Notes under the pieces: generated by a model | Told to the model about the DNA's origin: nothing | The model's input: only the letters and a program-made list of their open reading frames with translations | Database searches by the model: none | From: a virus | Strand: one strand, 5' to 3' | Virus record (IMG/VR): IMGVR_UViG_2754412344_000002 | Location: 1,647 to 65,646 of that record | Length of the DNA stretch: 64,000 bases | Shown here: piece after piece, positions 35,931 to 60,070 of the stretch | Numbering within the stretch: position 1 is the first letter of the stretch | Layout of the letters: the number at the start of each line of letters is the position of its first letter | Position numbers and translations under genes: made by a program

Positions 35931-35983
35931 CGATAGACGTAGAAACCGCCATTCTGGCGGCGCTCACTCATTTGGAGTACAGA

Positions 35984-43629: not shown

Positions 43630-43634
43630 CCACT

Positions 43635-43717
43635 AGGTCCGTCGGAACCGTCAATCTGACCTGTATCGCCAGTCAGCGAGGGTTAGCCCGTTAAGTCAGT
43701 TCCAGCAGGGCAGGAAC
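43635..43717 (+). ncRNA. Pseudoknot RNA motif, copy 1 (upstream of coat gene)
   Basis: AGGTCC-hairpin-...GCCCGTTAA...A GTTCC AGCA GGGC A GGAAC. Confidence 0.7.
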
Positions 43718-43765
43718 GAAAGTTCGCCGCAAGGCGCGTTTTCCCTGTCCTTTTGGAGATGACAA

Positions 43766-44965
43766 ATGGCCGGCAACTCCTTGTTGACCATCAACCAAAT
43801 CACGAACGAGGCAGTCCGCCTCTTCACGCAGTCCAACGCTTTCCTTCGCACGGTTTCGCGCCAGTACGACGATCAGTTCGCCCGCTCGGGTGCCAAGATC
43901 GGTAACACGCTGCGCATCCGCCTGCCGAACGATTACGTCGTCAACACCGGCCCGGCGATCACGCCGCAAGGCACCAACGAACAGAACACGACGCTGACGG
44001 TTGCGACCCAAGCGAACGTGCCGGTTTCGTTTGGTACGGCCGAAAAAACGATGTCGTTGGACGACTACAGCGAGCGCATCCTCGCACCTGCTATCAACCG
44101 TCTCGCCGCTCACATGGCGGACGACCTGATGTCGGTGGCGCAGCAGTCGTGCAACCTGGTGTACAAGAATTCGTCGGGCCTCGTCTCGCCGGATGCAAGC
44201 ACCTGGCTTACCGCTGGTGCCACGCTGTCGCAGAACCTTGCGCCGGAAATGGATCGCAAGATCATCATGGATCCGCTGACGCAAGCTCGCTCGGTCTCGT
44301 CGCTTGCTGGTCTCTTCAACCCGCAACGCAAGATCAGCGACCAGTACGAAACCGGGATGATCACGACCGATACCCTCGGCTTCGACTGGATGATGGATCA
44401 GACGACCCGCGTTCACACGGTCGGTTCGTTCTCGGCTGGCACGGTCAACGGCGCAGGCCAAACGGGCAACACGCTTACCGTCAACGCAATCACCGGCACT
44501 CTGAACGCTGGCGATGTCATCACGATTGCTGGCGTCAATGCGATCAACCGCCTGACTGGCCAAGACCAGGGCGCTCTGCGTCAGTTCGTGGTTACGCAAA
44601 ACGTCGCTTCGGGCGCTACGTCGATTCCGATCTACCCGGCAATCGTCCCGGCTCCCGCAGCGTTCAACACGGTCACGGCATCGCCTGCCAACAGCGCAGC
44701 AATCAGCCTCGTGCTCCCGGCCAGCTCGCAGTATCGCCAGAACCTCGCGTATTACCCCGAGGCATTCACGCTGGCAACGGCCGACCTCGAAATGCCGACG
44801 ACCGGTGTTGTCGAAGCGGCCCGAGCTGAGTTTGATGGCGTGTCGCTGCGTCTTCTGACCGCGTATGACGTGATGAGCGACAGTTTGGTGACAAGAATTG
44901 ACTGCTTGTACGGATATGCAGCAATTCGCCCCGAATGGGCCTGTATCGTCGCCGATCAGGTGTAA
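43766..44965 (+). CDS. P22-like major capsid (coat) protein
   Basis: MAGNSLLTINQITNEA, F..SGAKIG.TLRIRLP, RIDCLYG...RPEWA. Confidence 0.93.
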   Translation: MAGNSLLTINQITNEAVRLFTQSNAFLRTVSRQYDDQFARSGAKIGNTLRIRLPNDYVVNTGPAITPQGTNEQNTTLTVATQANVPVSFGTAEKTMSLDDYSERILAPAINRLAAHMADDLMSVAQQSCNLVYKNSSGLVSPDASTWLTAGATLSQNLAPEMDRKIIMDPLTQARSVSSLAGLFNPQRKISDQYETGMITTDTLGFDWMMDQTTRVHTVGSFSAGTVNGAGQTGNTLTVNAITGTLNAGDVITIAGVNAINRLTGQDQGALRQFVVTQNVASGATSIPIYPAIVPAPAAFNTVTASPANSAAISLVLPASSQYRQNLAYYPEAFTLATADLEMPTTGVVEAARAEFDGVSLRLLTAYDVMSDSLVTRIDCLYGYAAIRPEWACIVADQV

Positions 44966-44985
44966 GCCTTTCTCCGGTGCGGTTT

Positions 44986-45016
44986 GGAGCCGGGGGAATA
45001 CCTCGGCTCCTTTTTT
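44986..45016 (+). terminator. Intrinsic terminator after coat gene
   Basis: GGAGCCGGGG-GAATA-CCTCGGCTCC-TTTTTT. Confidence 0.8.
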
Positions 45017-45025
45017 GGACTGCTA

Positions 45026-45310
45026 ATGGGTCACATCAACATCTCCAATGGCCGCAATTTCACGGCCCCCTACACGTTCTCCGAATATCCCAAGTGGGTG
45101 ACGCTGGCCGATGGATCGCAGGTCATCGTGCATGACGAGGACGAAGAAGCGTCTGCAATGGGCGCTGATGCTGCGGACGCCCAGTCCGTGCGCGAAGAAA
45201 TCTCCGAGCGTGAACGCTTGTTCGCAGAGGCGCGAGCACTCGGGCTGAAGCCACATCACAAGATGCGATCGGAACGGCTTCGAGAAATGATCGACGCTGC
45301 GAAATCCTGA
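45026..45310 (+). CDS. Head-associated hypothetical protein
   Basis: EYPKWV...VHDEDEE; C-terminal GLKPHHKM..E.L HeH-like motif. Confidence 0.7.
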   Translation: MGHINISNGRNFTAPYTFSEYPKWVTLADGSQVIVHDEDEEASAMGADAADAQSVREEISERERLFAEARALGLKPHHKMRSERLREMIDAAKS

Positions 45311-45327
45311 CCTTTCGAGGAAATCTC

Positions 45328-45750
45328 ATGAAGAAGCTTTTCGGTTTTATCGCTACTGCGGTTGCTGTTGCATTTGCTGCCCTTTCGGCTCCTGCATATG
45401 CTCAGTTCAACGCGAACAATGGCTTTTCGACCATCAACACCCAGTGTGGCACGTACTTCCTCCAAGGCAGTACCTACTACAACTGGCAAGGCGTTTCGGT
45501 TGGCTCGTCGCTCCCCTTTTGCGCCGGTTCGATGAGTTCGCAAAACGCAAACTCGGCGCTCGTGATCCCGGCGAAGTACACGAACGCAACGCTTCCGACC
45601 TGCAACGCATCGAGCGCTGGTCTGGTCGCGATCGAGACGGACGGCGCTGCTAGCCCGGTCTATGCGGCTACTGCAACGGGTGGCGGCACGCTGTACGTGG
45701 AAGTGCTCTGCACGAACAGCAACGGCTCGTATAGCTGGACGAACCACTAA
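45328..45750 (+). CDS. Protein with Sec signal peptide and beta-rich body
   Basis: MKKLFGFIATAVAVAFAALSAPAYA|Q; C-terminal ATLPTCNAS..G...TDG fibre-like module. Confidence 0.75.
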   Translation: MKKLFGFIATAVAVAFAALSAPAYAQFNANNGFSTINTQCGTYFLQGSTYYNWQGVSVGSSLPFCAGSMSSQNANSALVIPAKYTNATLPTCNASSAGLVAIETDGAASPVYAATATGGGTLYVEVLCTNSNGSYSWTNH

Positions 45751-45753
45751 GCC

Positions 45754-48417
45754 ATGCGCAAGTATTGGGACGTCGTTTTCTTCACCAACAGCATCCCTGC
45801 TGCTGGGGCAAAAGTATTTGTGACGGATTCCACGTCCGGGAACCTCGTCACGCTCTATTCTGACAACGGCGTTACCCAAATCACGAACCCGGTCACGTGT
45901 GATCAGACCGGGTTCTACTCATTCTATGTCGCTGATGGTACTTACAACCTTCAGTACATGATTGGCCCGGTCACTCTGCGCACGCTAACTAATGTGCAGA
46001 TCTATGACCAAAGCAATATCCCGGAAATTTCCGGAGCGGTCACGATCACGAACGAGATAGCGGATGGTACTGCTACTGATGCGGCGACGCTGACGGGTGC
46101 AGAAACGATTCCGATGTCGCGTGGCGTTGGCCTTCTGCAAACTTCGCTTACCAAGATTGGTCAATGGGTTCTACAGACCTATCAGGGATTCACGCAAGGA
46201 GCGACTGGGTCTGTCAATCGCACGGTCAAGTCGAAGTTAAGCGATGTGGTCTCTGTGGCTGATTTCGGCGCTGTAGGTGATGGAGTGACGGACGATACGA
46301 TAGCAATCACTAACGCCATCACGTATGCCGCAACAAACGACGTTCCGCTGTATTGGCCTGCCGGAAAAATTTACGGTGTGACTAACGTCAACGTCAGTGT
46401 TGGCGGAGGCGTCTTTGATTGGACTGGGTTTGCTCGTATCAAACAGCTTGCAACCGGCAATCCTGCTTTACCCGTACTGCTCATAGGCGGCGTTGTAGTA
46501 GGCAATACTACCGCAACCGCAACTTCGCTTTCGCAAAGTCAAACGCTTACGCTAGCGAGCGTGGCAGGTATCCAGCCAGGATATTTGCTTAGAGCCATGA
46601 CAGATCGCCTTGCATATGGAGCGCATCAGTTCGATCCCAATAATGCTTTCGGTCAATTATGCAAGGTTCAATCAATTGCTGGGAATACCGTCACACTTAC
46701 TGACAATCTTGTTTTTGATATGCCTGTCGGCACTATCACTAGCGGGACCGCGCAAGCCGGAACTAGTGGCACCATCACGCTTTCTGCGTCCGATTCATCG
46801 ACATATTACCAACTAAAGAATTACCTATTGACTATCACAGCTGGAACAGGAGCTGGGCAGTCAAAATATATTGATCTATATAATCCATCGACAAAAGTCG
46901 TGGATATCGGCACTAGTTACACCGGTATTCCTCAGGCACCGTGGGCGACGATTCCAGACAATACGTCGCAGTATTCTGTCGCCGCGACAGTTTCTGTTCG
47001 AATTATTCAACCAGCCTATATCAAGGACCTTGCAAACCTTGAGTTGCAAGGATATCGCGTCCCATCGGTCTCAACTAATGGCCTACAGTTCCAATTTTGC
47101 GACGCTCCCAATATATATGGCGTGAAAATATGGGATTGTAGCGTACAGGCGCTTATTGATTACCAGAACTATCATCCAAAGATGATTTCGTGTGATATAT
47201 CTGGTGCAAATGTAAATAACGCCGGAAACACCACGTTTGGATTCGGGCAAGTTAGTTACGGGAGTTATAGCCCGATTATTGCATACTGTACATTCAGTAA
47301 TTGCAGCCAAGCATGCGATGCCAACAACGCAACCATGTTTCTGACTCGCATCGGGAATGTTATCAATGGCGGCGGCATGAGTTGGGATGGCGTCACGCCG
47401 ATGTGGCCGGCCACAACAACTATGCAGACGTGTGGTCTTGCGACTCATACTAGCGTCTTTGGATGTGTAGACCAAGGGAACACAATCACCGATGTTTTTT
47501 TTAACAAACAACGGGGGATGTGGCAAACGTTCATTGGTAATACATTGCGCGGGCGTATGCAATATTGCGTTCAACCATCGTATGCTACCAGCGTTACGTA
47601 TCTTGATAATGTCTATGATGATGGCATGACAAATCAGCCATCGACGGGGACAAATGGAATAATTAGTGGCGATGACGGGTTGCCAATTGTGTCGTCATTC
47701 GTGAATCGGCCGCTTGCGTTCATGAATTTGCGGTTTAACACGATGGTTATCAACGCATCTATAGTTGCGAAAGGTAATGTCGTAAAAAGCCTGAATTCTA
47801 CGTTCGTGTGGGTAACGGATTGCGGTGTCGCTCCTGGTGGGGACTCCCCCAATAATATTGCCCTTACGACTACCGACAACGATATAGATATCGTTTCTTC
47901 AGGTTCTGGGTTGCTTGGCATCGTAGAAAGTGATGGATCTGGGGCGCCTAACTTCGCGCAATTTACCTCCTATCATAATGTTGTGCGTGTCGGCGGCACG
48001 TCTTATCTTGGATCGGTGCAGGCCGACAACATCAACCTGTATCCGTTTTTATCCAACATAACAGTGAGTAACCCACTGACTTTTCAGATGGGTATCAACA
48101 AATGGCTATGCATATTGCCAGCTAACACGGTCACGCCACTAACTTTCCCGGTTGGTAACAATACATTCAGACTTACAGTCTTCGAGAAAGATTCAGCAGC
48201 GTCCAATGTTTTCGATGGGATCGTAACGCGAGGCAATACGACTCCGATTGCGTCATTTGCCAATACAAACGTTAATTTTTCAACAGGAACGCCTAGCGGG
48301 TCAGCGGGCACTGCCGGGAATGTATACGTTTTTATCAGAACGGACGCTTTATATATAAGCAATAAGAACAGCACCCAATGCAATTTCGTAGTGATGCTCA
48401 GTGGAGCTTATGACTGA
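45754..48417 (+). CDS. Tailspike/receptor-binding protein 1 (beta-helix)
   Basis: RTVKSKLSDVVSVADFGAVGDGVTDDTIAI pectate-lyase-3-like entry motif; low-GC C-terminal two thirds. Confidence 0.85.
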   Translation: MRKYWDVVFFTNSIPAAGAKVFVTDSTSGNLVTLYSDNGVTQITNPVTCDQTGFYSFYVADGTYNLQYMIGPVTLRTLTNVQIYDQSNIPEISGAVTITNEIADGTATDAATLTGAETIPMSRGVGLLQTSLTKIGQWVLQTYQGFTQGATGSVNRTVKSKLSDVVSVADFGAVGDGVTDDTIAITNAITYAATNDVPLYWPAGKIYGVTNVNVSVGGGVFDWTGFARIKQLATGNPALPVLLIGGVVVGNTTATATSLSQSQTLTLASVAGIQPGYLLRAMTDRLAYGAHQFDPNNAFGQLCKVQSIAGNTVTLTDNLVFDMPVGTITSGTAQAGTSGTITLSASDSSTYYQLKNYLLTITAGTGAGQSKYIDLYNPSTKVVDIGTSYTGIPQAPWATIPDNTSQYSVAATVSVRIIQPAYIKDLANLELQGYRVPSVSTNGLQFQFCDAPNIYGVKIWDCSVQALIDYQNYHPKMISCDISGANVNNAGNTTFGFGQVSYGSYSPIIAYCTFSNCSQACDANNATMFLTRIGNVINGGGMSWDGVTPMWPATTTMQTCGLATHTSVFGCVDQGNTITDVFFNKQRGMWQTFIGNTLRGRMQYCVQPSYATSVTYLDNVYDDGMTNQPSTGTNGIISGDDGLPIVSSFVNRPLAFMNLRFNTMVINASIVAKGNVVKSLNSTFVWVTDCGVAPGGDSPNNIALTTTDNDIDIVSSGSGLLGIVESDGSGAPNFAQFTSYHNVVRVGGTSYLGSVQADNINLYPFLSNITVSNPLTFQMGINKWLCILPANTVTPLTFPVGNNTFRLTVFEKDSAASNVFDGIVTRGNTTPIASFANTNVNFSTGTPSGSAGTAGNVYVFIRTDALYISNKNSTQCNFVVMLSGAYD

Positions 48418-48461
48418 TTTTTATTTTCGCAATTGCTTTCCAAGATATTAGATCTAACGCA

Positions 48462-49223
48462 ATGACAATCGCCATTTCGACCGTTCCTCCCCAGACAACA
48501 GTTCGAGACATCATCAATCTCGCTCTGAAGACTGCGAACGTTCTCGGCGTCGGCCAAGTCGCGTCCGCTGAGGACATGACGGACTCGTTCAATCTGTTGA
48601 ACATGTTGATGGCGCAGCTCCAGCGGCGCCGCTACATGATCTACCAGCTCGTTACGCTGGCGAAACAGGCGACGGGCGCGATTTCGTACACGGTTGGGCC
48701 TGGTGGCGATTTTGATGTAGCACGTCCGGCGAAACTGGAGTCTGCATTCTTCCGTCAGAACGTGCAAACTCCCCTTCCGGTGGATTACCCGCTGGAAATT
48801 CTTCGATCGACCGAAGACTACAACCGGATCTCGATCAAGAACCTGAATGCCTTCCCGCGATATGCCTTTTACGATATGGCATACCCGATCGGCAATCTGT
48901 ACGTATGGCCCGTGCCGAACTCGATGTATGAGATTCACATCACGGTCATGCAGCAACTCCAACAGTTCCAGACCGTCAACGACACGATTGCTATGCCGCC
49001 TGAATATAGCGCGGCTTTGATGTGGAATCTTGTGCTTGAGTTGTACCCGTTTTACGGGTTGCCGGTCAGCGACGTTGTGCGAGGTAAGGCAGAGGCTTCG
49101 CTTCGGATCATCGAAGAAGCAAATACGGCGATTCCGCAGCTTCAGTTGCCGCCGTCTGTGCGGCCTCAACGGGGAGCAACTTACAACGTGTACGGGGACT
49201 TCCAGATCGGGAGCACCCCGTGA
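48462..49223 (+). CDS. Head-tail adaptor (P22 gp4-like)
   Basis: DIINLAL...VLG.GQ..SAED..D....LN.L motif; position. Confidence 0.7.
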   Translation: MTIAISTVPPQTTVRDIINLALKTANVLGVGQVASAEDMTDSFNLLNMLMAQLQRRRYMIYQLVTLAKQATGAISYTVGPGGDFDVARPAKLESAFFRQNVQTPLPVDYPLEILRSTEDYNRISIKNLNAFPRYAFYDMAYPIGNLYVWPVPNSMYEIHITVMQQLQQFQTVNDTIAMPPEYSAALMWNLVLELYPFYGLPVSDVVRGKAEASLRIIEEANTAIPQLQLPPSVRPQRGATYNVYGDFQIGSTP

Positions 49224-50644
49224 AGTTTGCACTTACCACGGGAGCTTATTCTGCAAAGTCGCTGGTCGCGAACGCGCAGCGCTGCGTGAATTTGTATGCC
49301 GAAAAGAATACGCAAGACTCTCCGTTCCCGTTTACGTACTACCAAACGCCGGGTCTTACGCAGCTAGTCATGGCAACACCGACATCTGGAAGCGGCTGGC
49401 GCGCGCTATTTGCTGCGTCTGATGGATACGGGTACGGAGTGTGTGGGTCGACCGTCTATAAGATCGATTCGTCGTGGAATCTGAAGAAGCTGGGCGACAT
49501 CGCGAGCCAAACCGGTTTCGTCTCGATGATCGACAACGGCACGACGTTGATGATCGTAGATGGCTCGACTCAAGGTTGGCTTGTTACCTTGAATAGCGGT
49601 GCATTCTCAGCAGTAATTGACCCGGGATTCTACGGTTCGGCGCGGATTGATTTCGTTGACGGGTATCTCGTATTCAACCGCCCGGGTACGTCGCAGTGGT
49701 ACATCTCGCTCGTCAACGAAACTAACTTTGATGCTACGGATTTTGCTTCGAAGTCGGGATTCTCCGATCAGCTCGTCGCGGTAGCTGTTGCCAAGCGCTA
49801 CGTCTACCTTTTTGGCGAAGCAACGACCGAAGTTTGGTTTGACGCTGGCGATACGCCCTTTCCGTTTGATCGTCTGCCCGGCGTATTCATCCAGTTTGGG
49901 TGCACGTCGGCCGCATCGATTTCGCAGATGGACGGTGACATTTACTGGCTGGCGCAGTCGCCGCAAGGTAATGCGGTCGTCTGCAAGACCGAACAGTTCA
50001 GCGCCTCGCAGATTTCGACGTTCGCTATCGACAATGAGATTGCCTCCTATCCGGATCTGAACCAAGCAATCGGGTTCACGTACCAGATCGAAGGCCATTT
50101 TTTCTACGTGCTGACGTTCCCGGTCAGCGATAAGACGTGGCAGTTTGACCTTAGCACGGGTCAATGGAACGAGCTTGCTTGGGTCGATACGAACGGCAAT
50201 TTGCATCGCCATCGCGCGAACTGCTATGCCTTTATCAATGGCGTTCCTGTCGTCGGTGATTGGCAGAACGGGAATCTGTATAAGTGGGACGTTTCAAACT
50301 ACACGGACAACGGCAATCCGATTCCACGCATTCGGTCGTTCATGCACAGCGTTGACGACAACTCGGATCGTATTCGCTATCGCGAGTTTATTGCGAATAT
50401 GGAAGTGGGTAATGGCAACAACTATGCCCCCGTTCCCGTGTTTCTTCGTTGGAGTGACACCCGTGGTAAATCGTGGGGAAACGCTATCAGCACGAGTCTG
50501 GGTCTAGAAGGCGAATACCTGACTTCATTGCAATTTCAACGGCTCGGAATGGCCCGTGACCGGGTGTTCGAGCTTTCATGGTCGGCGCCAGTCAAGACCG
50601 CGCTTCTTGGGGCATGGGTGCAGGCGCAATCGAACAACCAGTGA
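49220..50644 (+). CDS. Packaged-DNA stabilisation/tail hub protein (P22 gp10-like)
   Basis: Beta-propeller-like, FVDGYLVF, FGEATTEVW, GMARDRVFE. Confidence 0.85.
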   Translation: MKFALTTGAYSAKSLVANAQRCVNLYAEKNTQDSPFPFTYYQTPGLTQLVMATPTSGSGWRALFAASDGYGYGVCGSTVYKIDSSWNLKKLGDIASQTGFVSMIDNGTTLMIVDGSTQGWLVTLNSGAFSAVIDPGFYGSARIDFVDGYLVFNRPGTSQWYISLVNETNFDATDFASKSGFSDQLVAVAVAKRYVYLFGEATTEVWFDAGDTPFPFDRLPGVFIQFGCTSAASISQMDGDIYWLAQSPQGNAVVCKTEQFSASQISTFAIDNEIASYPDLNQAIGFTYQIEGHFFYVLTFPVSDKTWQFDLSTGQWNELAWVDTNGNLHRHRANCYAFINGVPVVGDWQNGNLYKWDVSNYTDNGNPIPRIRSFMHSVDDNSDRIRYREFIANMEVGNGNNYAPVPVFLRWSDTRGKSWGNAISTSLGLEGEYLTSLQFQRLGMARDRVFELSWSAPVKTALLGAWVQAQSNNQ

Positions 50645-50646
50645 CC

Positions 50647-51414
50647 ATGGCTAACCTGCAAGCAAACGTCCCGCTGATTGATGTGCCTCCGGTTGACCCA
50701 AAGACCGGGAAGTGGAATGAAGCATGGTTCCTTTTCCTCGTGCAGCTTTTCCGGCGCACTGGCGGAACGAACGGCGGTGACGGGCAATTGACGATTGAAG
50801 ACGTGCTGGGCGTCGAAGAAACGTTCGCACTTCCTCCGATTGATACGTCATCCCCGCTCAGCGAAATGACGCTGGCTCAGCCGAGCAGCGACACGTTGAT
50901 CGACATGCTGTTTGCGTCGCCCGTGAACACTGATTACGCGCAAGCTGCGGCCACTGTAACGCTCGGGGCATCGCCCGCAACCTATACGGCCACGTCTCGC
51001 CAAGGATTCCATATCACAGGAGGCGCAGTAACGGCTCTAACGCTTCAGCGCGGGCCGACAGTGCTCCCGGTCGGTAATTCGGCGTCAGACATCGTGGACA
51101 AGACGTTTGTATCTGGGACTGATTTCACGCCGGGTACAACCACAACGCTGACTTTGCCGAACTCGTTTGGTGCGATCTCGCGGCTATGGCTGTTCTTCGA
51201 TGCGACGTTCCAAGGCGATGACCAGATCCTGTCTCTGGTCGGAACGACGCTCACACTCACAAGCGCCATTCCTGTAGGAACTAGCCGTGTGTATGTGAAG
51301 GGTCTGCTGCAAGGCGCTGTAGGTATCGGCTCGACGCTGATTGAGTTGAACGCTGGCGACAAGGTGAACGTCACCTATTCGAGCGCACCGACTGTAACGA
51401 TTTTGCCGAGGTAG
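50647..51414 (+). CDS. Tail protein sharing a ~72-aa domain with RBP2
   Basis: P.ID..TG.W..AWF.FL N-terminus; GTDFTPG.TT.LTLP...FFDA domain. Confidence 0.7.
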   Translation: MANLQANVPLIDVPPVDPKTGKWNEAWFLFLVQLFRRTGGTNGGDGQLTIEDVLGVEETFALPPIDTSSPLSEMTLAQPSSDTLIDMLFASPVNTDYAQAAATVTLGASPATYTATSRQGFHITGGAVTALTLQRGPTVLPVGNSASDIVDKTFVSGTDFTPGTTTTLTLPNSFGAISRLWLFFDATFQGDDQILSLVGTTLTLTSAIPVGTSRVYVKGLLQGAVGIGSTLIELNAGDKVNVTYSSAPTVTILPR

Positions 51415-51416
51415 TA

Positions 51417-51758: not shown

Positions 51759-51790
51759 CCTGCATGGGTCATTATTTAGGGAGTTAGCAG

Positions 51791-52132: not shown

Positions 52133-52707
52133 TGCGGAATTTCCAAAAAATCGCAGAGGGCGTCAATGTAACGCCCTTGCTCAATGCACTGTACCGAAAG
52201 CCGGACCTCTGGAAGGCGGACGATTTCTTGCGGAAGTACCCGCAAGGCCCGTTCGGTGATACCGACACGATCTATCTGCGATTTCAAGATCATGTCCACG
52301 TCAATTCGGCTGAGGAGGAAGAGCTTTACAAGCAGAACAAGCTCGCCGGTCATGATCTGCATGAGTGCCCGTGGCGCCCAGAGGTCAATGAGTTGCCCGA
52401 AGCTCGCAATCACATTATGGCGCTGATGACTGCTCTTGGCGGGACGCGGCTCGGTCGGTGCATGGTGAATCGCCTTAAGCCGGGGGGGCGCATTTTCCCG
52501 CACGCTGATTCGCCGTGGCATGCGGAATACTGGGATCGATATCACCTTGTTCTGCAATCGGAGCCAGGCAATACGTTCCGATGTGGTGATGAGCAAGTAT
52601 GGATGCGTCCTGGCGAGATTTGGTGGTTTCAGAACGCGCTCGAGCATGAAGTTGTGAACAACAGCGCCGATGATCGTATCCACCTTGTAATTGATGTGAG
52701 GTTCTAG
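52132..52707 (+). CDS. Asp/Asn beta-hydroxylase-like 2OG-Fe(II) oxygenase
   Basis: L.PGG.I.PHAD, RYHLVL, GE.WWF.N..EHEV.N....RIHLVID. Confidence 0.88.
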   Translation: MRNFQKIAEGVNVTPLLNALYRKPDLWKADDFLRKYPQGPFGDTDTIYLRFQDHVHVNSAEEEELYKQNKLAGHDLHECPWRPEVNELPEARNHIMALMTALGGTRLGRCMVNRLKPGGRIFPHADSPWHAEYWDRYHLVLQSEPGNTFRCGDEQVWMRPGEIWWFQNALEHEVVNNSADDRIHLVIDVRF

Positions 52708-53159
52708 TGATTACGTTTGCGATCGAACGGTTCAGCGATGTGTATGGCGAGCTTAAGCCGTTGCTGGAAGAGCACTACGGTGAAATTTCGACGCATATCC
52801 ATCATGGCATCGCATTGGAGCCTCAAGAGGAAGTGTATCGAGCGCGTGAAGCGGATGGCTCACTGATGATGGTGATCGGTCGCGAAGCTGGAGAAATCGT
52901 CGCCTACTTCGTGTGCTTTATCGCACCGGGTCTTCATTACCGCTCATGCCTCACCTGCTCGCCCGACATTTTTTATGTGGCTCCCGAGCGACGCACCGAG
53001 CTTGCTGGCATTCGCATGTTCCGGTTCGTGGAGAAAGAACTGAAGCGACGCGGCGTGAAGCGATGGGCTGTTGGAAGCAAGGTTCAACACGATGCATCGG
53101 CGCTGTTCAAGTTTCTCAAGTTTGAACCGGTCGAAACGACTTACGAAAAGTGGCTGTAA
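52707..53159 (+). CDS. GNAT-family acetyltransferase-like protein
   Basis: DIFYVAPERR....G..M..F.E..L..RGV..W; precedes ejection proteins. Confidence 0.8.
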   Translation: MITFAIERFSDVYGELKPLLEEHYGEISTHIHHGIALEPQEEVYRAREADGSLMMVIGREAGEIVAYFVCFIAPGLHYRSCLTCSPDIFYVAPERRTELAGIRMFRFVEKELKRRGVKRWAVGSKVQHDASALFKFLKFEPVETTYEKWL

Positions 53160-53171
53160 CAGGGAGTTGAC

Positions 53172-53966
53172 ATGGTAGCAGCAGCAATCGGTGGTGCAGC
53201 GGTAGCAGGCTTGGCGGGTTCCGCCATGCAGGCCGGGGCGGCCTCGGACGCTGCTAGCGCACAAGCAGACGCCGCAAATAATGCAGCTGGTCTGCAATGG
53301 CAGCAGTTCCAGCAGATGCAGAAGAACTTGCAGCCGTACATGAACCTTGGTACTAACAATATCCAAGGTATGCAGGATCAGCTCGCGAAACTTGGAGGGA
53401 TGCAGTTCAGCTTCAACCCGACTGAAGCGCAGCTCGAACAGACGCCCGGTTACCAGTTCACTCTCCAGCAAGGCTTGAAGAATACGAACAACGCACTGGC
53501 CGCCAAGGGCCTGAATTTGTCCGGTGCGCAGGCCAAAGGGCTATCGCAATATACAACAGGACTCGCGGATCAAACGTTCCAGCAACAGTATCAAAACGCG
53601 TTGCAACAGTTTGCGACAAACTACGGTGTCAACACGGACCAGTTCAACCGTCTTTCCGGCCTCGTTGGTCTCGGTGAAAATGCTGCCGCTGGCGTTGGTA
53701 ACGCCGGTCTTCAAACCGCATCGAATGCGGGCAACATTCTCATGTCAGGCGCGAACGCTCGCGCGGCTGGAACGGTTGGATCGGCTAATGCTATCAGCAA
53801 CGGCTTGTCGTCACTTGGGGGCAATGGATTGCTGTATTCGCTCATGAACAACAATGCTGGCGGCGCAGGCGGATTTTACGGTGGCAACTTCAGCACTGGT
53901 ATTAGCCCTGCCGACTACGCAACAAGCTCAATGTCGGGCCTCGGCGGCCTTGGATACGGGTACTAG
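53172..53966 (+). CDS. DNA ejection (pilot) protein, P22 gp7-like
   Basis: Gly/Ala/Gln-rich, TPGYQF.LQQG, SGAQAKGL. Confidence 0.8.
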   Translation: MVAAAIGGAAVAGLAGSAMQAGAASDAASAQADAANNAAGLQWQQFQQMQKNLQPYMNLGTNNIQGMQDQLAKLGGMQFSFNPTEAQLEQTPGYQFTLQQGLKNTNNALAAKGLNLSGAQAKGLSQYTTGLADQTFQQQYQNALQQFATNYGVNTDQFNRLSGLVGLGENAAAGVGNAGLQTASNAGNILMSGANARAAGTVGSANAISNGLSSLGGNGLLYSLMNNNAGGAGGFYGGNFSTGISPADYATSSMSGLGGLGYGY

Positions 53967-53974
53967 GAGACACG

Positions 53975-55456
53975 ATGCCGCTCGATCCCTCGATCCCCCT
54001 GCAAATCCAGACGCAGCAGAATCCGTTTCAGGCCATTCAGCAGCCGATCCAGACTGCGGCCGGGCTGCTTGCGCTCAAACAGAATTCCATGCGCCTGAAC
54101 GCGAATCAGGCCATTTCTGATGCCTATTCGCAGTCGTTAAATCCCGATGGATCTGTGGATTTCAATAAGCTTCAGACGTTGGCAAGCCAGAACGGCGCTG
54201 GCGCATTTTTGCCCGAATTCATGGGGCAAATTGCACAACAGCGAAACAGCCAACTCCAGTACGACACCGGCAAGCTTGATCTCGCACTGAAGCAACAACA
54301 GGACATCCGCAACCGCATTGGGTCGCTCGCGCTTGATCCGAATCTCGGCAAAGCGGACATGTCTAGTTCTATCGTGCAGCAGATCACCCAAGCGGTCCAG
54401 AACGGGACACTGCCGCTTGATCAAGGTGTGCGTGAGATTCAGTCGATTCCGTCAGACCCGAGCGCTCAAGCTGGGTGGGTGCGCAACCACCTAATGAACT
54501 CGCTGTCTGGCGAAGCGAAGATTCAGGCACTGATGCCGAAGGTTCAAACGATCGATAGCGGTGGTCAAGTCAATATCGTCCCGCTCAACACGATGACTGG
54601 CGCTCCGCAGGGGCAAGTCACGACTATCAACAAGACTCTTACTCCCGGTGAGGCGGCACAGCGCATCGCTGCGGTTGGGCCTGACGGCACTCCTGGGACA
54701 ATCCCCCTCGGGTCGACTGTTCCGGGGGCTCAGGGCGGATATACGGGACGTTACGGCGACCAGGGCGGCAACGGAGCGCCCGCTGGTTTCGTGGCGACTG
54801 GGATGAGTCCGGCCGCGCAGTCGGCGTCTGCCTCACAAGGTGCAACGTCTAACACCGCAGCACAGACGCTTCACGATGCCGCGGCCGATGCGCCGATGCG
54901 CCTCAATCTGCTCTCGCAAGCGCGAGATGCTCTCGCCGGAATCAACACGGGTCCCGGTTCTGACTGGCGCAATCAGGCGAAGTCGTTCTTCAATGCGTTG
55001 GCACCTGAGACCGCTAAAGCAATCGGATTCACCGGAGAAGTCAAGGATTACGACGAGTTCAAGAAGATCCTGACGAACTACGCGTCGTCGGTTTCTGGAT
55101 CGCTTGGGACGGGCACAGATGCGCGTTTGAATGCGGCTGTTACCGGGAATGCAAACCCGGGTATTTCGAAAATGGCGAACGAGGATATTCTCGCCAAGAC
55201 GATAGCCGCCGAGAAGATGCGCGCAGCGCAAGACTATGCATTCCAAAACTCTGGCTTGACGACCGACAAGTTCAACCAGTGGCAATCGCAGTGGAACAAG
55301 GCCGTCGATCCGCAGGCATTCGTCTACGACTCGATGAGTCCGAAGCAACGGCGCGCAATGCTTGAGCGCATGTCGCCTCAGCAGGTTCAGCAACTCCGAA
55401 GCAACTATAACGCGCTTGTGAACCAAGGGATTATCCAACCCGGGAGCGGCCAGTAA
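53975..55456 (+). CDS. DNA ejection protein, gp20-like
   Basis: MPLDPSIPL start, Gln-rich, position. Confidence 0.7.
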   Translation: MPLDPSIPLQIQTQQNPFQAIQQPIQTAAGLLALKQNSMRLNANQAISDAYSQSLNPDGSVDFNKLQTLASQNGAGAFLPEFMGQIAQQRNSQLQYDTGKLDLALKQQQDIRNRIGSLALDPNLGKADMSSSIVQQITQAVQNGTLPLDQGVREIQSIPSDPSAQAGWVRNHLMNSLSGEAKIQALMPKVQTIDSGGQVNIVPLNTMTGAPQGQVTTINKTLTPGEAAQRIAAVGPDGTPGTIPLGSTVPGAQGGYTGRYGDQGGNGAPAGFVATGMSPAAQSASASQGATSNTAAQTLHDAAADAPMRLNLLSQARDALAGINTGPGSDWRNQAKSFFNALAPETAKAIGFTGEVKDYDEFKKILTNYASSVSGSLGTGTDARLNAAVTGNANPGISKMANEDILAKTIAAEKMRAAQDYAFQNSGLTTDKFNQWQSQWNKAVDPQAFVYDSMSPKQRRAMLERMSPQQVQQLRSNYNALVNQGIIQPGSGQ

Positions 55457-57705
55457 TGGATCTCAGCGCGATCATCCTTGCATCTGGTCGCAAGCACAAC
55501 CTTGACCCGAACTTGATTAACGCTGTCGTACAGCAGGAATCAGGTGGGAACCCGTCTGCCTGGAACAAAGCAGGTGGGGGACAAGGAGCTGCCGGTCCAA
55601 TGCAAGTGCGCGCGCCTGCCCTGTCTGACTACAACGCCGCAAATGGTACCAAGTACACGATGCAGGACCTCACCAATCCGCAGGTTGGCGTTGAAGTTGG
55701 ATCGTGGTACCTCGGACAGCAGCTTGATCGATTCAACGATCCACGAAAGGCCGTAGCAGCATACAAAGACGGTGCGGGATCCCAGCAAGCGCAAACGGGG
55801 AATAGCCCGTATGCGCAGCAAGTTTTTGGACGGCTCAATATGCCTCAGAAACAACAACCGTCGTCGCTCCCGGGAATTCCCGTGATGCAGCCGGCATCCG
55901 CGCAAGGCTCTGATCCGTTCTCAAGCTTGGCTGTTGACGGACAGAATAAGCCGACTGCTCCTGCTGCGGGCGGCAATGATCCGTTCTCGTCTCTGCCTGT
56001 GGAACCGAAACAAGGCGCCCAGCAGGCTGCACAGCCAGCCCCTCAATCGCCGGCTGCACTGGGTCAACAACAGGGAAGCCTCGAATCTTTTGCAGCTGGT
56101 TTGGGTAAAGGTTTCGGCTCTACCGTTCTCGGCGCCCAACAACTGTTGGGCCACGGACTGCAATCACTCGGCTCGAATTCGCAAGGCATGACGCAAGGCG
56201 GCAGCGATCTTATGGGTATGATCGGCCGCGCAGGCAATTGGCTTGTGAATGATGCAAATACGGGCCTGAAGAATCTGAATCAGCAATACTCGCCCTATTC
56301 TCAAGCGCATCCAATTGCTGCGGGCGCTGGCAATATTGGTGGATCCCTTGTCGCAACCGCCCCGCTTGCTGCCGCTGCTCCAGTAGCGCGCGGCTATTTC
56401 GGGGCCGCTGGAATCGGCGCGGGACTTGGCGCCGCCACGGGAGCGCTCACGCCGGTTGAAAATGACCATCCAGCGAATCTGACTTCACTTGTCACGGGAC
56501 AGCAACCGACGGATTTCTGGAAGGAAAAGCTCAATCAGATCGGCCTTGGGGCTGCCACAGGCGGCGCAATGTCACCGCTTGCTATGCTAGCTGGCCGCGT
56601 AATTTCGCCGCAAGTTTCAGATGACGTGAAGACCCTGATCGAATCGGGCGTCACGCCCACTCCCGGCCAGATCCTTGGCGGCGGTTTTGCAAAAACAGAA
56701 GACAAACTTACTAGCATTCCTGTCCTTGGCGACATGATCAAGAATGCTCAGCAGCGGGCAGTTGGGCAGTTCAATGCTGCTACATACAACAATGCTCTTG
56801 CACCGATTGGCAAGACATTTAATGGGAAAATCGGCCAAGAAGGGATCGAACAAGTAGGCAATTCAATTAGTGATGTATATGATTCCGTTTTGCCTAAAAT
56901 GCAGTTTAAGGTTGACCCACAATTCCAAGCTGATATCACAAATCTTGGTTCCCTTGCTCAGGGTTTGCCAGACGCTCAAGCAAAAACGTTTATGAGCGTT
57001 TTGAAGAATCAAATTTTTAGCAAAATGTCTCCGCAAGGTTCCATGGATGGCGAAACGCTTAAAGGCGTGCAAAGTGAACTCGCGCGAAAGGCAAACGGGT
57101 ACCTCGGCGATGCTTCTTTTGATAATCGCGAACTGGGAGCGGCAATCAGCGAAATTCGAAATGCTGTTGATGACAATCTTTCTCGCGTTAATCCCCCTGA
57201 TCTAGCCCAGCAATTAGCCAATGCCAATTCTGCGTGGGCTAGATTCACGCGCTTACGCACTGCCGCAGCATCGCAAGGCGCAATGAACAATGAGGGCGTT
57301 TTCACGGCAGCAATGCTTAACAGAGCTGTGCGATCAGCGGATCAAAGCGTAGGCAAGGGCGCGACCGCCACAGGAAATGCATTAATGCAGGATTTGGCCG
57401 GGGCGGGCCAAAGAGTTCTTGGTGCAAAATATCCAGACTCCGGAACCATTGGGCGTGGATTAATGACGCTGTTGGCGCCCACAGGAATTGCGGCAGGCTT
57501 TGCTACCCAACCGGTGGCAACCGCAGCAACTTTAGGCGGCATCGGGCTGGGGTCCCTGCCTTATACCCAACTTGGGCAGCGAGCCACCTCCGCATTACTT
57601 ACGTCGCGCCCACAGTTTGCCCAACCGGTAGCCAACGCGGTATCGAAGCTCGGCCCGAAAGTCGTAGCCGGGAGCTTGCCGGCGCTGCTTTCGCTCGGCC
57701 AGTGA
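55456..57705 (+). CDS. Ejection protein with N-terminal lytic transglycosylase domain, gp16-like
   Basis: AVVQQESGG, A.GPMQV, YL...LDRF.....AVAAY..G. Confidence 0.85.
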   Translation: MDLSAIILASGRKHNLDPNLINAVVQQESGGNPSAWNKAGGGQGAAGPMQVRAPALSDYNAANGTKYTMQDLTNPQVGVEVGSWYLGQQLDRFNDPRKAVAAYKDGAGSQQAQTGNSPYAQQVFGRLNMPQKQQPSSLPGIPVMQPASAQGSDPFSSLAVDGQNKPTAPAAGGNDPFSSLPVEPKQGAQQAAQPAPQSPAALGQQQGSLESFAAGLGKGFGSTVLGAQQLLGHGLQSLGSNSQGMTQGGSDLMGMIGRAGNWLVNDANTGLKNLNQQYSPYSQAHPIAAGAGNIGGSLVATAPLAAAAPVARGYFGAAGIGAGLGAATGALTPVENDHPANLTSLVTGQQPTDFWKEKLNQIGLGAATGGAMSPLAMLAGRVISPQVSDDVKTLIESGVTPTPGQILGGGFAKTEDKLTSIPVLGDMIKNAQQRAVGQFNAATYNNALAPIGKTFNGKIGQEGIEQVGNSISDVYDSVLPKMQFKVDPQFQADITNLGSLAQGLPDAQAKTFMSVLKNQIFSKMSPQGSMDGETLKGVQSELARKANGYLGDASFDNRELGAAISEIRNAVDDNLSRVNPPDLAQQLANANSAWARFTRLRTAAASQGAMNNEGVFTAAMLNRAVRSADQSVGKGATATGNALMQDLAGAGQRVLGAKYPDSGTIGRGLMTLLAPTGIAAGFATQPVATAATLGGIGLGSLPYTQLGQRATSALLTSRPQFAQPVANAVSKLGPKVVAGSLPALLSLGQ

Positions 57706-57774
57706 GCATTTGATACCGTAAATGACAGCTGTACCAACTGCCATTCCGATGGCATGAAATTCTGATTCGGTCAT
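57595..57774 (-). CDS. Small counter-oriented protein with N-terminal hydrophobic helix (59 aa)
   Basis: MTESEFHAIGMAVGTAVIYGIK...YRLGKLWARRK*; overlaps 3' end of ejection gene; read manually. Confidence 0.45.
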   Translation of the reverse strand: MTESEFHAIGMAVGTAVIYGIKCSLAERKQRRQAPGYDFRAELRYRVGYRLGKLWARRK

Positions 57775-57835
57775 AGGTCTAGTCGAGCCTCAAATCGACG
57801 GGCGGCCCGTCAAAAAGTCTCCAGAGGGCAGAGAC
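57775..57835 (+). ncRNA. Pseudoknot RNA motif, copy 2 (upstream of lysis cassette)
   Basis: AGGTCT-A-GTCGA/TCGAC hairpin-...GCCCGTCAA AAA GTCTC CAGA GGGC A GAGAC. Confidence 0.7.
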
Positions 57836-57891
57836 AGGTAGGCGAACTGCTGTTCGCTTACGTGATTCTACCTCTCTGCTTCGAGATTTAC

Positions 57892-58089
57892 ATGAAAGAT
57901 CCGGCCGCAATCAGCACGGCAGCATCGACGCCCGCAGTGGCGGTAACGGCGGCCCATTGGTTCGGGGCACATATCCCCGAATACGTGATGGTCGCTACGG
58001 CCGTCCTTACGACTATCAATCTTGCGGCGTGGGTTTATAAATTCCTGCGCTGGGCCGTCGGCAAAGAGGCTCCGCATGGCAACGATTGA
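57892..58089 (+). CDS. Holin-like membrane protein
   Basis: 65 aa with TM segment YVMVATAVLTTINLAAWVY; overlaps endolysin start. Confidence 0.65.
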   Translation: MKDPAAISTAASTPAVAVTAAHWFGAHIPEYVMVATAVLTTINLAAWVYKFLRWAVGKEAPHGND

Positions 58090-58576
58090 CGCCCAAACTG
58101 CGGGCGGTAAAAACCGCGTCGCACTGCTTGATGTGATCGCTAATAGCGAGATCGGCCCAGCGCTTCTCGCCATTCCAGAGACGGACAACGGGTATCTGGT
58201 TTTGGTTGGAGCTACGCCGCAAAACCCGCTGACATTCAGCAATTTCGCGAAGCACCCGAACATTTATAACGCGCAATGCGGGTCTACAGCAGCCGGACGA
58301 TATCAGATCCTGTATCGCTGGTGGGTGATCTACCAAAAGCGACTCAATTTGCCCGATTTCTCGCCGTTGTCTCAAGACAAGTACGCCCTTCAACAGTTCA
58401 AAGAACGTGGCGCACTTCCACTAATTGACGCCGGGAATCTCCAGGGAGCGCTGGCAAAACTCAACAACATTTGGGCGAGTTTGCCTGGATCTCCGTACGG
58501 ACAACATACCAATTCATATGCGCCGCTTGAGGCTGCGTATCTGGCCGCAGGGGGAACCCTTTCACAAGGTAGTTGA
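58076..58576 (+). CDS. Endolysin, lambda R-like (GH104)
   Basis: LD.IA.SE, STAAGRYQIL, DFSPLSQD, WASLPGSPYGQ. Confidence 0.92.
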   Translation: MATIDAQTAGGKNRVALLDVIANSEIGPALLAIPETDNGYLVLVGATPQNPLTFSNFAKHPNIYNAQCGSTAAGRYQILYRWWVIYQKRLNLPDFSPLSQDKYALQQFKERGALPLIDAGNLQGALAKLNNIWASLPGSPYGQHTNSYAPLEAAYLAAGGTLSQGS

Positions 58577-58577
58577 T

Positions 58578-58805
58578 ATGGATAAAACCTCCAGCTTCGT
58601 AACCGGCGGCGTCACGTTAAGCGCTGCAACTATCGAGCCTCTCGTCGCATGGGGAATGGGTGGGTTTCACGCTCCTGTCCCGGCTTCAGTTCCGCTTGTA
58701 GTGGCATCCCTCGCGATTACTGGACTCCACGCCGCGTACAACCTTTTGCGCGCCCGCTTTGCTGCTAAGGCAGCAGCGAAGGTCGCTCCCGCAGTTCAAC
58801 AGTAA
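58578..58805 (+). CDS. Small membrane protein in lysis cassette
   Basis: 75 aa, hydrophobic segments. Confidence 0.65.
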   Translation: MDKTSSFVTGGVTLSAATIEPLVAWGMGGFHAPVPASVPLVVASLAITGLHAAYNLLRARFAAKAAAKVAPAVQQ

Positions 58806-58814
58806 GGAATGGAA

Positions 58815-59234
58815 ATGAAGAAGCTTATCGCAATTGCTGCCCTCATCGCTCTCACCGCATGTACTGCGGCCCAGCAACAGAACGCCGCCACTCTGGCTGC
58901 CAATGCTCAAAAACAAGTTGGTAACGCGTGTTTGGTGGTGCAGCCGACTCTTGCCGATCTGAGCGCCTCCATGCCGGCAGATGAAAATCTGGCGAAACTG
59001 ACTGCTGCGAACGCCAAAATTTGCACTGCCGTTGCGTCGCTCAATGTCGCGAATGCGCAAAGCCTGATCGATACCGTGATCCCGCAAGCGATCGGTCTCG
59101 TGTCGCTGCTTCCGATTGATCCCGCGACCCAAACGACGATCAAAATTGCGTTGGGTGCGGCATCGCTCGCCCTCTCGAATTGGCTGATGGTCTACGGTCA
59201 GCCCGCGGCAACTGTCGCCCCCGCATCGGCATGA
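58815..59234 (+). CDS. Lipoprotein with hydrophobic C-terminal helix (spanin candidate)
   Basis: Lipobox LTAC; C-terminal IKIALGAASLALSNWLMVYG. Confidence 0.7.
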   Translation: MKKLIAIAALIALTACTAAQQQNAATLAANAQKQVGNACLVVQPTLADLSASMPADENLAKLTAANAKICTAVASLNVANAQSLIDTVIPQAIGLVSLLPIDPATQTTIKIALGAASLALSNWLMVYGQPAATVAPASA

Positions 59235-59953
59235 TCGACTTCGATCAAATCCTTGCGGCGGCAGAACGTGCCAACGCTGCGTATTTGGACACGACGGATA
59301 AGGCGCGCGCCGCGTTCGTCACTCTCGGCCTAGAATTTCTGGGTCAGTACCAAAACGCATCGCATCAAGCATGTTTGTCTCGCGATGCTGATAACGTCTA
59401 TCTGTCCATCTCTGGTACCCGGTTCAGCCAGAGAAAAATCGGCGATCTGTTCAGCGATATCGACCTTGATCCGATAGATGTTGGCGGCGGAGCAAAGGTC
59501 ACAGCGGGTGCCTACGAGGGCATGTCGGATATGTGGGAATGGGCGCGCGACATCGTGAATGATGATGTCGTGTGGAACGTCGAAGGACATAGTCTCGGCG
59601 CTTGGCGAACGCGCTATACCCCTCTGTTCGTGAAGCCGGAGAAGATTGGAAAGCTCCATAGTTTCGAATCCCCCAAGGGCGCGAATCGCGAGTACTGGCA
59701 GAAATACGAAGGTGAGTTGGCTTCGATGGTTTCTGTTGTGAATGGGCGTGATTGCTGGGTCAGTTGGCCGTTCAAAATTATCAACGACTGGGCGGTTCAT
59801 CCCGACCGAGATTTCATCTGGCTGAGCGCTAATTCATTTTCGATTGCCACGCCAGATACATGGCCCGGGGGTTTTTCCGCTCGTGACCATGATATGGACT
59901 TGGTAGAGCAACGAATCCGCGTCCTCGCGCAAAGCGGTAAGGAAGCGGCTTAA
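59231..59953 (+). CDS. Lipase class 3-like alpha/beta hydrolase
   Basis: ISGTR...D...D, V..GAY, VEGHSLGA nucleophile elbow, C-terminal DHDM. Confidence 0.85.
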   Translation: MIDFDQILAAAERANAAYLDTTDKARAAFVTLGLEFLGQYQNASHQACLSRDADNVYLSISGTRFSQRKIGDLFSDIDLDPIDVGGGAKVTAGAYEGMSDMWEWARDIVNDDVVWNVEGHSLGAWRTRYTPLFVKPEKIGKLHSFESPKGANREYWQKYEGELASMVSVVNGRDCWVSWPFKIINDWAVHPDRDFIWLSANSFSIATPDTWPGGFSARDHDMDLVEQRIRVLAQSGKEAA

Positions 59954-59958
59954 GCAAC

Positions 59959-60015
59959 AGGTCTAGCCGACCTAATCGGCGGAAGCCCGTTAAGCAGTCT
60001 CCCTAGGGCAGAGAC
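59959..60015 (+). ncRNA. Pseudoknot RNA motif, copy 3 (upstream of RBP2)
   Basis: AGGTCT-A-GCCGA/TCGGC hairpin-GGAA-GCCCGTTAA GCA GTCTC CCTA GGGC A GAGAC. Confidence 0.7.
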
Positions 60016-60070
60016 AACCGGCACAACCGGCATGAGGCGCCACGCGCTTGTTTCTGATCTAGGTATAAAA

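Follow-up and report, generated by a model that had tools for sequence, protein, structure and literature searches.

Three copies of an RNA motif in front of late genes

The viral DNA analysed here is a stretch of 64,000 nucleotides (nt) from the IMG/VR record IMGVR_UViG_2754412344_000002 (positions 1,647 to 65,646; hereafter "the window"), which carries three copies of a structured RNA motif, located before the coat gene, before the holin and endolysin genes and before a tail-fibre gene. A preliminary description, made from the letters alone, had noticed a repeated element at these three places, with a 5' AGGTCY, a hairpin whose sequence changes from copy to copy, and a stem whose loop carries GGGC, complementary to an upstream GCCC. 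By scanning the window for the core pattern GCCCGTYAA-N2-4-GTYYC-N3-6-GGGCAGRRAC, we found three matches, all on the + strand (43686-43717, 57805-57835 and 59985-60015), and none in 100 dinucleotide-preserving shuffles of the window. A covariance model run over the 64 kilobases (kb) with its filters off also returned just three copies, with 72, 67 and 38-40 bits, the next match scoring 7 bits. The whole provirus record (66,857 base pairs, bp) contains exactly three copies as well. Together, these scans confirm the three copies and their position before late genes.

Each copy comprises a first domain, with a hairpin (P1) and a 5' pseudoknot (PK1), and a second domain, with a hairpin (P2) and a pseudoknot (PK2) between the P2 loop and GCCC. 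All three copies were located by the pattern scan, the covariance model and alignment, and the genes that follow them are listed with them.

43635..43717, + strand: copy 1, before the coat gene
GGT 43636-43638 with ACC 43647-43649, + strand: PK1 of copy 1
43641-43646 with 43655-43660, + strand: P1 of copy 1
43666-43669 with 43676-43679, + strand: additional hairpin of copy 1
GCCC 43686-43689 with GGGC 43708-43711, + strand: PK2 of copy 1, with GTTAA 43690-43694 after GCCC
GTTCC 43699-43703 with GGAAC 43713-43717, + strand: P2 of copy 1
43766-44965, + strand: coat gene, downstream of copy 1
57775..57835, + strand: copy 2, before the holin and endolysin genes
AGGT 57775-57778 with GCCT 57787-57790, + strand: PK1 of copy 2
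57782-57786 with 57795-57799, + strand: P1 of copy 2
GCCC 57805-57808 with GGGC 57826-57829, + strand: PK2 of copy 2, with GTCAA 57809-57813
GTCTC 57817-57821 with GAGAC 57831-57835, + strand: P2 of copy 2
ATG 57892, + strand: start of the holin gene (phrog_920), followed by the endolysin gene, downstream of copy 2
59959..60015, + strand: copy 3, before the tail-fibre gene
AGG 59959-59961 with CCT 59971-59973, + strand: PK1 of copy 3
59966-59970 with 59976-59980, + strand: P1 of copy 3
GCCC 59985-59988 with GGGC 60006-60009, + strand: PK2 of copy 3, with GTTAA 59989-59993
59997-60001 with 60011-60015, + strand: P2 of copy 3
ATG 60071, + strand: likely start of the tail-fibre gene (conserved N-terminus MSASLLPNAK), followed by a tail-fibre assembly protein gene, downstream of copy 3

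The sequence elements of the preliminary description, including the change of the P2 stem from GTCTC/GAGAC to GTTCC/GGAAC, were all found again. Three of its points have to be amended. First, copy 1 has an additional hairpin (43666-43679) between the first hairpin and GCCC. Second, it had proposed a single pseudoknot, our PK2, and there is another one, between the 5' GGY and the opening bases of the loop of the first hairpin. Third, its GTYAA applies to the window, the third base being free in relatives (GUNAA).

A covarying family in Burkholderiaceae phages

By scanning IMG/VR with the hairpin left free (G-NNN-C ... G-NNN-C), we found at least 118 loci. Of the 121 matches listed, 101 have arms that are complementary throughout (five positions), the others listed being chance matches within genes. 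A strict scan of the Joint Genome Institute (JGI) metagenomes gave 32 loci with the same gene contexts. The motif is a family with at least about 100 further copies in P22-like phages and prophages of Burkholderiaceae (Cupriavidus, Paraburkholderia). Across 185,579 species-representative genomes, it was found only in Cupriavidus basilensis KF708 and Paraburkholderia saeva LMG 31841, and among 151 sampled Burkholderiaceae genomes only in the P. saeva genome that served as the search centre. When ten complete or near-complete phage records (33-57 kb) were searched with the model, eight had two copies 10-14 kb apart and two had one.

The motif lies on the sense strand of the gene that follows, and the distance from the end of P2 to the start codon is about 30-59 nt, a range kept across leaders. 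Among the matches listed, the next gene is a P22-type coat gene in about two thirds and a tail-fibre gene with a conserved N-terminus in about one fifth, a few being small holin-like genes. Pseudomonas phage PAE2, the closest named phage (coat 64% identical), is without the motif, and the gap between its scaffold and coat genes is just 6 nt.

Covariation was assessed in a model-guided alignment of 78 distinct sequences, which are related to one another. Standard pairs occupy 95.8% of the cells, compared with only 32-49% when the partner is slid by 1-3 columns, and this covariation supports the four helices P1, PK1, P2 and PK2. In P1 (5 bp), both sides vary at every pair and more than 10 different stem sequences occur. 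PK1, formed by the 5' GGY and the first three bases of the P1 loop, exists as GGC/GCC, GGU/ACC, GGG/CCC and AGG/CCU, its variable pair being C-G in 42 cases, U-A in 12 and U-G in 7. Since GGY pairs with the P1 loop, domain 1 has the classical form of an H-type pseudoknot, in which GUNAA is the crossing strand. P2 is nearly constant (GUCUC/GAGAC) and tolerates U-G pairs (GGGAC, GAGGC), one locus (L105) being intermediate to the GUUCC/GGAAC of window copy 1. Because these G-U wobbles would be C-A mismatches on the opposite strand, the structure belongs to the sense RNA, as the preliminary description had supposed in calling the element a cis-acting structured RNA of the late transcript.

Testing PK2 needed independently found sequences, since GCCC and GGGC were fixed in the search pattern. 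By using the model together with a scan that excluded the canonical last base, we recovered a sub-family UGUC...GGCA (pairs U-A, G-C, U-G and C-G) represented by at least 6 distinct sequences. They precede the tail-fibre gene in phages that have a canonical copy before the coat gene, and because this other copy stays canonical, the PK2 partners co-vary within a copy. The proposed H-type pseudoknot GCCC/GGGC is thereby substantiated. Both the C-G/U-A covariation of PK1 and the UGUC/GGCA variant speak against an alternative in which loop-loop "kissing" takes the place of PK1 and PK2.

Two loci (L042, 1310-1389, and L070, 4716-4830) have domain 1 in tandem duplicate, and a third (L010, 4135-4225) has an additional covarying hairpin after domain 1, as window copy 1 does. 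The motif, which we regard below as the sensor half of a switch, therefore tolerates modular insertions between its two pseudoknots. The conserved unpaired bases are GUNAA, which occurs twice, an A before and a G after P1, and two A flanking GGGC; they would be apt for binding a ligand or a protein.

With respect to described RNAs, scanning the window against Rfam 15 at the gathering threshold returned tRNAs only, and E-value scans (up to E 10) of copy 1, copies 2-3 and three relatives gave no match on the motif. The Rfam families covered include int-alpA (RF02996), a catalogued leader RNA of swappable phage and island genes, and the self-cleaving classes hammerhead, twister, twister-sister, pistol, hatchet and HDV-like. 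These scans agree with the earlier impression that the motif is no described riboswitch or ribozyme. A literature search with exact sequence words found only chance matches in tuf genes, the tables of one catalogue of 10,006 candidate viral RNAs from IMG/VR, published in 2023 (PMC10690425), lying outside that search. This catalogue may list the motif.

One copy lies in a satellite-like record (locus L223), with terminal repeats of 127 bp:

G163:C1:1-18787, 18,787 bp: motif at 11431-11460, - strand

Its genes include those for an integrase, primase, helicase and DNA invertase and for internal virion proteins of P22 type (ejection or lytic), and genes for coat, portal and terminase are absent. 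The motif occurs in it once, precisely where the replication genes end and the virion-protein genes begin. The record is probably that of a satellite of P22-like Burkholderiaceae phages, and looks as if it had taken over its helper's late-gene leader, in which case the trigger of the element acts in trans.

Two mutually exclusive folds of the leader

The sequence between the motif and the start codon was compared with random positions by using 84 distinct sequences. A hairpin, P3, begins at most 14 nt after P2 in 68 of the 84 (29% at random positions), carries a GNRA loop in 43 (0.35%) and is followed by at least 4 U within 8 nt in 51 (2.5%). After P3 and the U-rich tract come a Shine-Dalgarno (SD) sequence and the start codon. 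Copies without P3 include three loci (L030, L039 and L061), and several copies of the tail-fibre class are without the U run. In a terminator scan of P3 (G+C-rich stem of at least 5 bp plus U run), the only window copy to pass was the hairpin of copy 3, many stems having 4 bp.

In the window, this downstream part, the putative expression platform, comprises the following features, where z compares the minimum free energy (MFE) with dinucleotide shuffles, and Alt-1 and Alt-2 are alternative pairings described below.

43718..43768, + strand: platform of copy 1, with the coat start ATG 43766 (MFE -51 kcal/mol, z -3.5)
CGCC-GCAA-GGCG 43725-43736, + strand: P3 of copy 1, extended by GAAAG/TTTTC
43744-43751, + strand: tract CCTGTCCT of copy 1, which can pair with AGGGCAGG 43707-43714 (Alt-2)
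TTGGAG 43753-43758, + strand: copy 1 segment that includes the SD GGAG and can pair with TTCCAG 43700-43705 (Alt-1)
57836..57894, + strand: platform of copy 2, with P3 as a 10-bp hairpin at 57838-57861 (z -4.8)
57871-57878, + strand: CCTCTCTG of copy 2, which together with GAGATT 57883-57888 pairs with 57816-57829 in the masking fold
60016..60073, + strand: platform of copy 3, with hairpins at 60018-60030 and 60035-60049 (z -2.1)
60049-60056, + strand: TGTTTCTG of copy 3, pairing with CAGAGACA 60009-60016 in the masking fold
CTAGG 60059-60063, + strand: ribosome-binding site (RBS) of copy 3, pairing with CCTAG 60002-60006 in the masking fold

When motif and leader were folded together, the three window copies and a typical coat copy (L024, z -4.0) all formed one long hairpin instead of P2. 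In this masking hairpin, the 5' strand of P2 and the first loop bases pair with the SD region (Alt-1), GGGC-A-GAGA pairs with the U-rich tract (Alt-2), and P3 sits at the tip. A member of the UGUC/GGCA sub-family (L149) reaches z -4.6, with 13 nearly perfect pairs below P3. In 74 unique leaders, P2 never occurred in the nested MFE structure, and the mean gap to the best fold with P2 enforced was 11.3 kcal/mol, in ViennaRNA nested folds that score no pseudoknots. The SD region is mostly paired in the MFE structure of 71 of these 74 leaders.

The P2-loop bases outside PK2 differ between gene classes, and the bases next to the SD change alongside. The couples of loop and RBS are CGCA-CGGAGA in coat copies, CAGA-UGGAG, CCGA-UCGGG or CGGGC in tail-fibre copies, and CCUA-UAGGG or CUAGG; single loci add GUUCC-UUUA with UAAAGG (L105) and GG-UCUC with GAGACC (L146). 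The mean duplex energy of a strand with its own RBS is -9.15 kcal/mol, versus -8.14 kcal/mol (standard deviation 0.17) when RBSs are permuted among copies, and none of 5000 permutations reached the observed value; shuffled strands gave -5.15 kcal/mol against the RBS. This excess persists within the coat class (reached in 8/5000), within the tail-fibre class (2/5000) and with one representative per strand type (24/5000). In most leaders, the RBS bases engaged in Alt-1 end 3-8 nt before the start codon.

Alt-2 co-varies in two informative cases: in the UGUC/GGCA sub-family, AGGCAAGAG is matched by CUCUUGCUU, and in window copy 1, AGGGCAGG by CCUGUCCU. GGGC/GGCA thus has two alternative partners that both track its changes, which is a switch signature. 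RNAalifold on the coat leaders recovered only P2 and P3, because variation in leader length misaligns the SD columns, and for that reason the alternative helices were tested by duplex energies and permutation. Both sets of helices are conserved, co-varying complementarities, and they exclude each other.

A putative translational switch and its rivals

Given these two folds, we lean, with moderate confidence, towards a riboswitch-like, cis-acting translational switch in late-mRNA leaders, of which the motif is the sensor half. We infer that the choice between the folds controls translation of the coat, tail-fibre and lysis genes. In the proposed on form, domain 1 would be an H-type pseudoknot, with GGY paired to the P1 loop and the A-rich GUNAA crossing the stem. 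Domain 2 would hold GUCUCC in P2 (GUCUC/GRGAC), its loop tied back to GCCC by PK2. Here GUCUCC would be the anti-SD strand and GRGAC an SD look-alike that occupies it, so that the real RBS and the U-rich tract would stay single-stranded and translation could proceed. In the off form, P2 and PK2 would open, GUCUCC and the first loop bases would pair with the real SD region, and GGGC-A-GAGA would pair with the U-rich tract, with P3 at the tip, giving one long hairpin that buries the RBS.

Binding or stabilisation of the double pseudoknot would tip the balance towards the on form late in infection, the trigger possibly being a protein of the phage or the host, a small molecule, or no more than the sequence in which the RNA folds while it is transcribed. 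The narrow host range and the satellite copy suggest a factor made in infected Burkholderiaceae cells and not a metabolite common to all cells. A mechanism that is purely kinetic, with the sensor folding ahead of the rest as the RNA is made, is also a candidate. As in riboswitches, there is a conserved, structured and covarying sensor in the 5' leader, and the pairing of the platform excludes part of that sensor; the gene context (coat, tail fibre, holin) suggests no ligand. Also, RNA-seq contigs of a related lysogen span the motif into the coat gene. A more specific version, which we consider doubtful although worth stating, is that the double pseudoknot would serve an "on" riboswitch as aptamer, or a late activator of translation as binding site, neither of them described so far, and would thereby gate capsid, tail-fibre and lysis synthesis on a signal of productive infection, and that the satellite would have copied the switch to time its virion genes with the helper.

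Several observations weigh against a translational switch. First, the gap of 11 kcal/mol overstates the preference for the off form because ViennaRNA cannot score pseudoknots, and the real balance is closer. Second, complementarity between CUCC and GGAG is partly generic, the specific part of the permutation test being just about 1 kcal/mol, and the sequences are related, so that the counts are not independent events. Third, the satellite-type copies L008 (z -1.1) and L070 (z -0.9) form the masking fold only weakly. Finally, a strong terminator behind the coat gene, the want of a recognisable Q and the weakly terminator-like P3 with its U tract would also fit control of transcription.

This last point is the core of an explanation that we judge improbable, namely that the motif is a processive antiterminator RNA, either like put of HK022, which acts independently of a protein factor through the beta' zinc-binding domain of RNA polymerase, or like nut, together with a protein of the phage. 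Bound by the double pseudoknot as this emerges, RNA polymerase would then read through the weak P3 + U-tract stop and the coat terminator into 12 kb of promoter-less head-completion and tail genes. The terminator lies right behind the coat gene:

44986..45018, + strand: strong intrinsic terminator, 10 bp with 8 G-C pairs, then T6

Under a strict rule, such a terminator was found within about 25 nt of the coat gene in 38 of 46 relatives, and by eye also in 5 of the 8 scored as lacking it. The next gene begins 10-30 nt further on, which leaves no room for a promoter, and the head-completion and tail genes must therefore depend on read-through. The U-rich tail on P3 (51 of the 84 unique copies) would suit this explanation too. 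Moreover, searching the provirus for the Pfam families of Q antiterminators gave no hit, in line with the preliminary description.

The putL and putR elements of HK022 are also about 70 nt long, cis-acting and composed of two domains, namely two long stem-loops with a triplex, and lie behind early promoters (PMC9378689). The motif resembles them in its size and two domains, in its 2-3 copies per phage, in its restriction to one phage and host group and in its highly conserved sequence. However, it matches put neither in sequence nor in structure, a search of the complete HK022 genome with the motif model having found nothing at E up to 1. Its copies lie in late regions, with no defined promoter, and not in early ones as put does, although a strong terminator follows the coat gene just as terminators follow put. 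They stand at a short fixed distance from late start codons, and compete with an SD-masking helix. No boxA-like word (YGCUCUUUA, 1 mismatch allowed) occurs within 150 nt of any copy, and the GNRA hairpin P3 is downstream of the motif, whereas nut has boxA and then the boxB hairpin. Furthermore, the first late genes (terminase, portal, scaffold) are upstream of every copy, and the satellite operon behind its copy is without a strong intrinsic terminator. The motif also co-varies with the U tract and the SD to which it can pair, a relation that polymerase binding does not need.

Equally improbable to us is a processing or stability element, that is, a self-cleaving ribozyme or a host RNase site that cuts the long late transcript, the compact protected 5' end and the coat terminator hairpin together yielding a stable, highly translated mRNA. 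In prophages, several intergenic self-cleaving ribozymes reportedly often occur together. The double pseudoknot, compact and with unpaired bases that are conserved, would fit such a role, as would the bracketing of the coat gene by motif and terminator. Nothing is conserved upstream of the 5' edge, and homology to a related lysogen begins exactly at 43634. Two RNA contigs begin 3 and 13 nt upstream of the motif. A third one, however, extends 83 nt upstream through the motif, and the contigs (four RNA-seq runs, one related strain) share no 5' end at the motif, although contigs cannot show ends. In addition, scans up to E 10 gave no match to a known ribozyme family, and the covariation of the P2 loop with the RBS would be left unexplained. 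Thus, among the roles offered in the preliminary description, a translational operator is retained in a broad sense, given the anti-SD strand and the covarying masking hairpin, whereas a put-like antiterminator and processing are less supported by the HK022, boxA and RNA 5'-end results.

Less probable still is a transcription attenuator, in which the two folds would decide whether P3 and its U tract terminate, instead of or besides masking the SD. The frequencies of P3 (68 of the 84), of its GNRA loop (43) and of the U run (51) speak for it. P3 stems are often just 4 bp, though, some copies are without P3 and several of the tail-fibre class without the U run; moreover, the motif-folded state would free P3 and the U tract and stop transcription just when the SD opens, which is contradictory. 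Finally, a signal in the DNA itself (a promoter or activator site of late genes like those of P2 or Mu, or else a linker for recombination at module borders, with the inverted repeat as a protein-binding palindrome) would fit copies that head late gene modules, one of them at the replication/virion junction of the satellite-like element, and a mosaic breakpoint at the 5' edge of the motif, but is scarcely credible given that P1 pairing is kept across more than 10 stem sequences, that G-U wobbles are tolerated on the sense strand only, that PK1 and PK2 partners co-vary within a copy while the other copies of the same phage stay canonical, and that no sigma-70-like site occurs at a fixed position upstream, the only good match being 130 nt upstream of copy 1 within a window-specific gene.

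Returning to the translational switch, we rate the element as a probable cis-acting translational RNA switch outside every described family, as judged from Rfam 15 and the exact-word literature search. In mechanism, it would be closest to pseudoknotted translational riboswitches and to the Com/mom system of phage Mu, and in form and copy number to HK022 put. SAM-II, preQ1-II/III and the adenine "on" switch likewise have a sensor in the 5' leader, one strand of which is also the partner of the SD region, and mutually exclusive folds; the H-type geometry with an A-rich crossing strand recurs in domain 1 of the motif. Unlike them, the motif matches no Rfam model, precedes structural and lysis genes of phages instead of metabolic ones, and has two tandem pseudoknots, each with a CC-GUNAA module. 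In phage Mu, the RBS of the late gene mom is hidden in a hairpin and freed when, late in infection, the phage factor Com stabilises an upstream RNA structure. A hidden late-gene RBS freed by an upstream structure is what we propose for the motif, with the difference that Mu uses a simple hairpin and a zinc-finger protein for one gene, whereas the motif is a double pseudoknot of 70 nt that would serve 2-3 genes per phage. The gene 32 operator of T4 is autoregulatory, serves one gene and is not known to build an alternative helix from its pseudoknot strands; it shares with the motif a 5' pseudoknot followed by an unstructured U/A-rich tract into the RBS of a phage gene. This leader pseudoknot operator is mentioned in the 2023 catalogue (PMC10690425).

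A lead to a factor acting in trans is a small basic open reading frame rich in Lys and Pro (55-59 residues), which immediately precedes the tRNAs and the small terminase gene, the position expected of a late regulator:

35972-36151, + strand: small Lys/Pro-rich basic open reading frame

It occurs in each of the 7 complete phages that bear the motif and is conserved in 39 loci, is present neither in PAE2 nor in the satellite, and has no Pfam or PHROG match. We take it as a lead only, and shared ancestry may explain the co-occurrence.

Other genes that border the copies or lie near them are the following.

42955-43629, + strand: endonuclease VII/HNH-like gene (phrog_1035) with an unassigned C-terminal domain, between the scaffold gene (42123-42851) and the coat leader
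45023-45310, + strand: conserved protein of about 85-95 residues, right after the coat terminator
57595-57774, - strand: small divergent gene of 59 residues, with one hydrophobic stretch and a basic tail, whose start codon abuts the 5' edge of copy 2
63334-63924, - strand: O-acetyltransferase/O-antigen acetylase-like moron, at the end of the tail-fibre module, on the opposite strand

The phrog_1035 gene is missing from the related lysogen, whose homology to the window restarts at the motif edge mentioned above, and looks like a homing-endonuclease-type insertion at a module border. The protein after the coat terminator is present in all motif-bearing relatives and not in PAE2, and has no family match. 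Homologues of the divergent gene (59-73 residues, 32 loci) abut tail-fibre-class copies of the motif in relatives. It is protein-coding, since its variation falls at third-codon (wobble) positions. Its own RBS lies within the complement of P1/PK1, and its 3' part overlaps the end of an ejection-protein gene on the opposite strand.

The control of late genes in tailed phages is usually explained by transcription, through Q, Ogr/C-type activators or sigma factors. Here, one conserved RNA device fronts the three late functions most critical in dosage and time, that is, capsid, receptor binding and lysis, and both of its competing folds are under selection. If the translational switch proposed above is right, it would add a post-transcriptional layer to the timing of late phage functions, and would offer a compact and portable regulatory part of about 120 nt for Burkholderiaceae. 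The key question would then be what flips the switch, and the satellite copy suggests that the signal can be exploited in trans, so that the trigger should be experimentally accessible.

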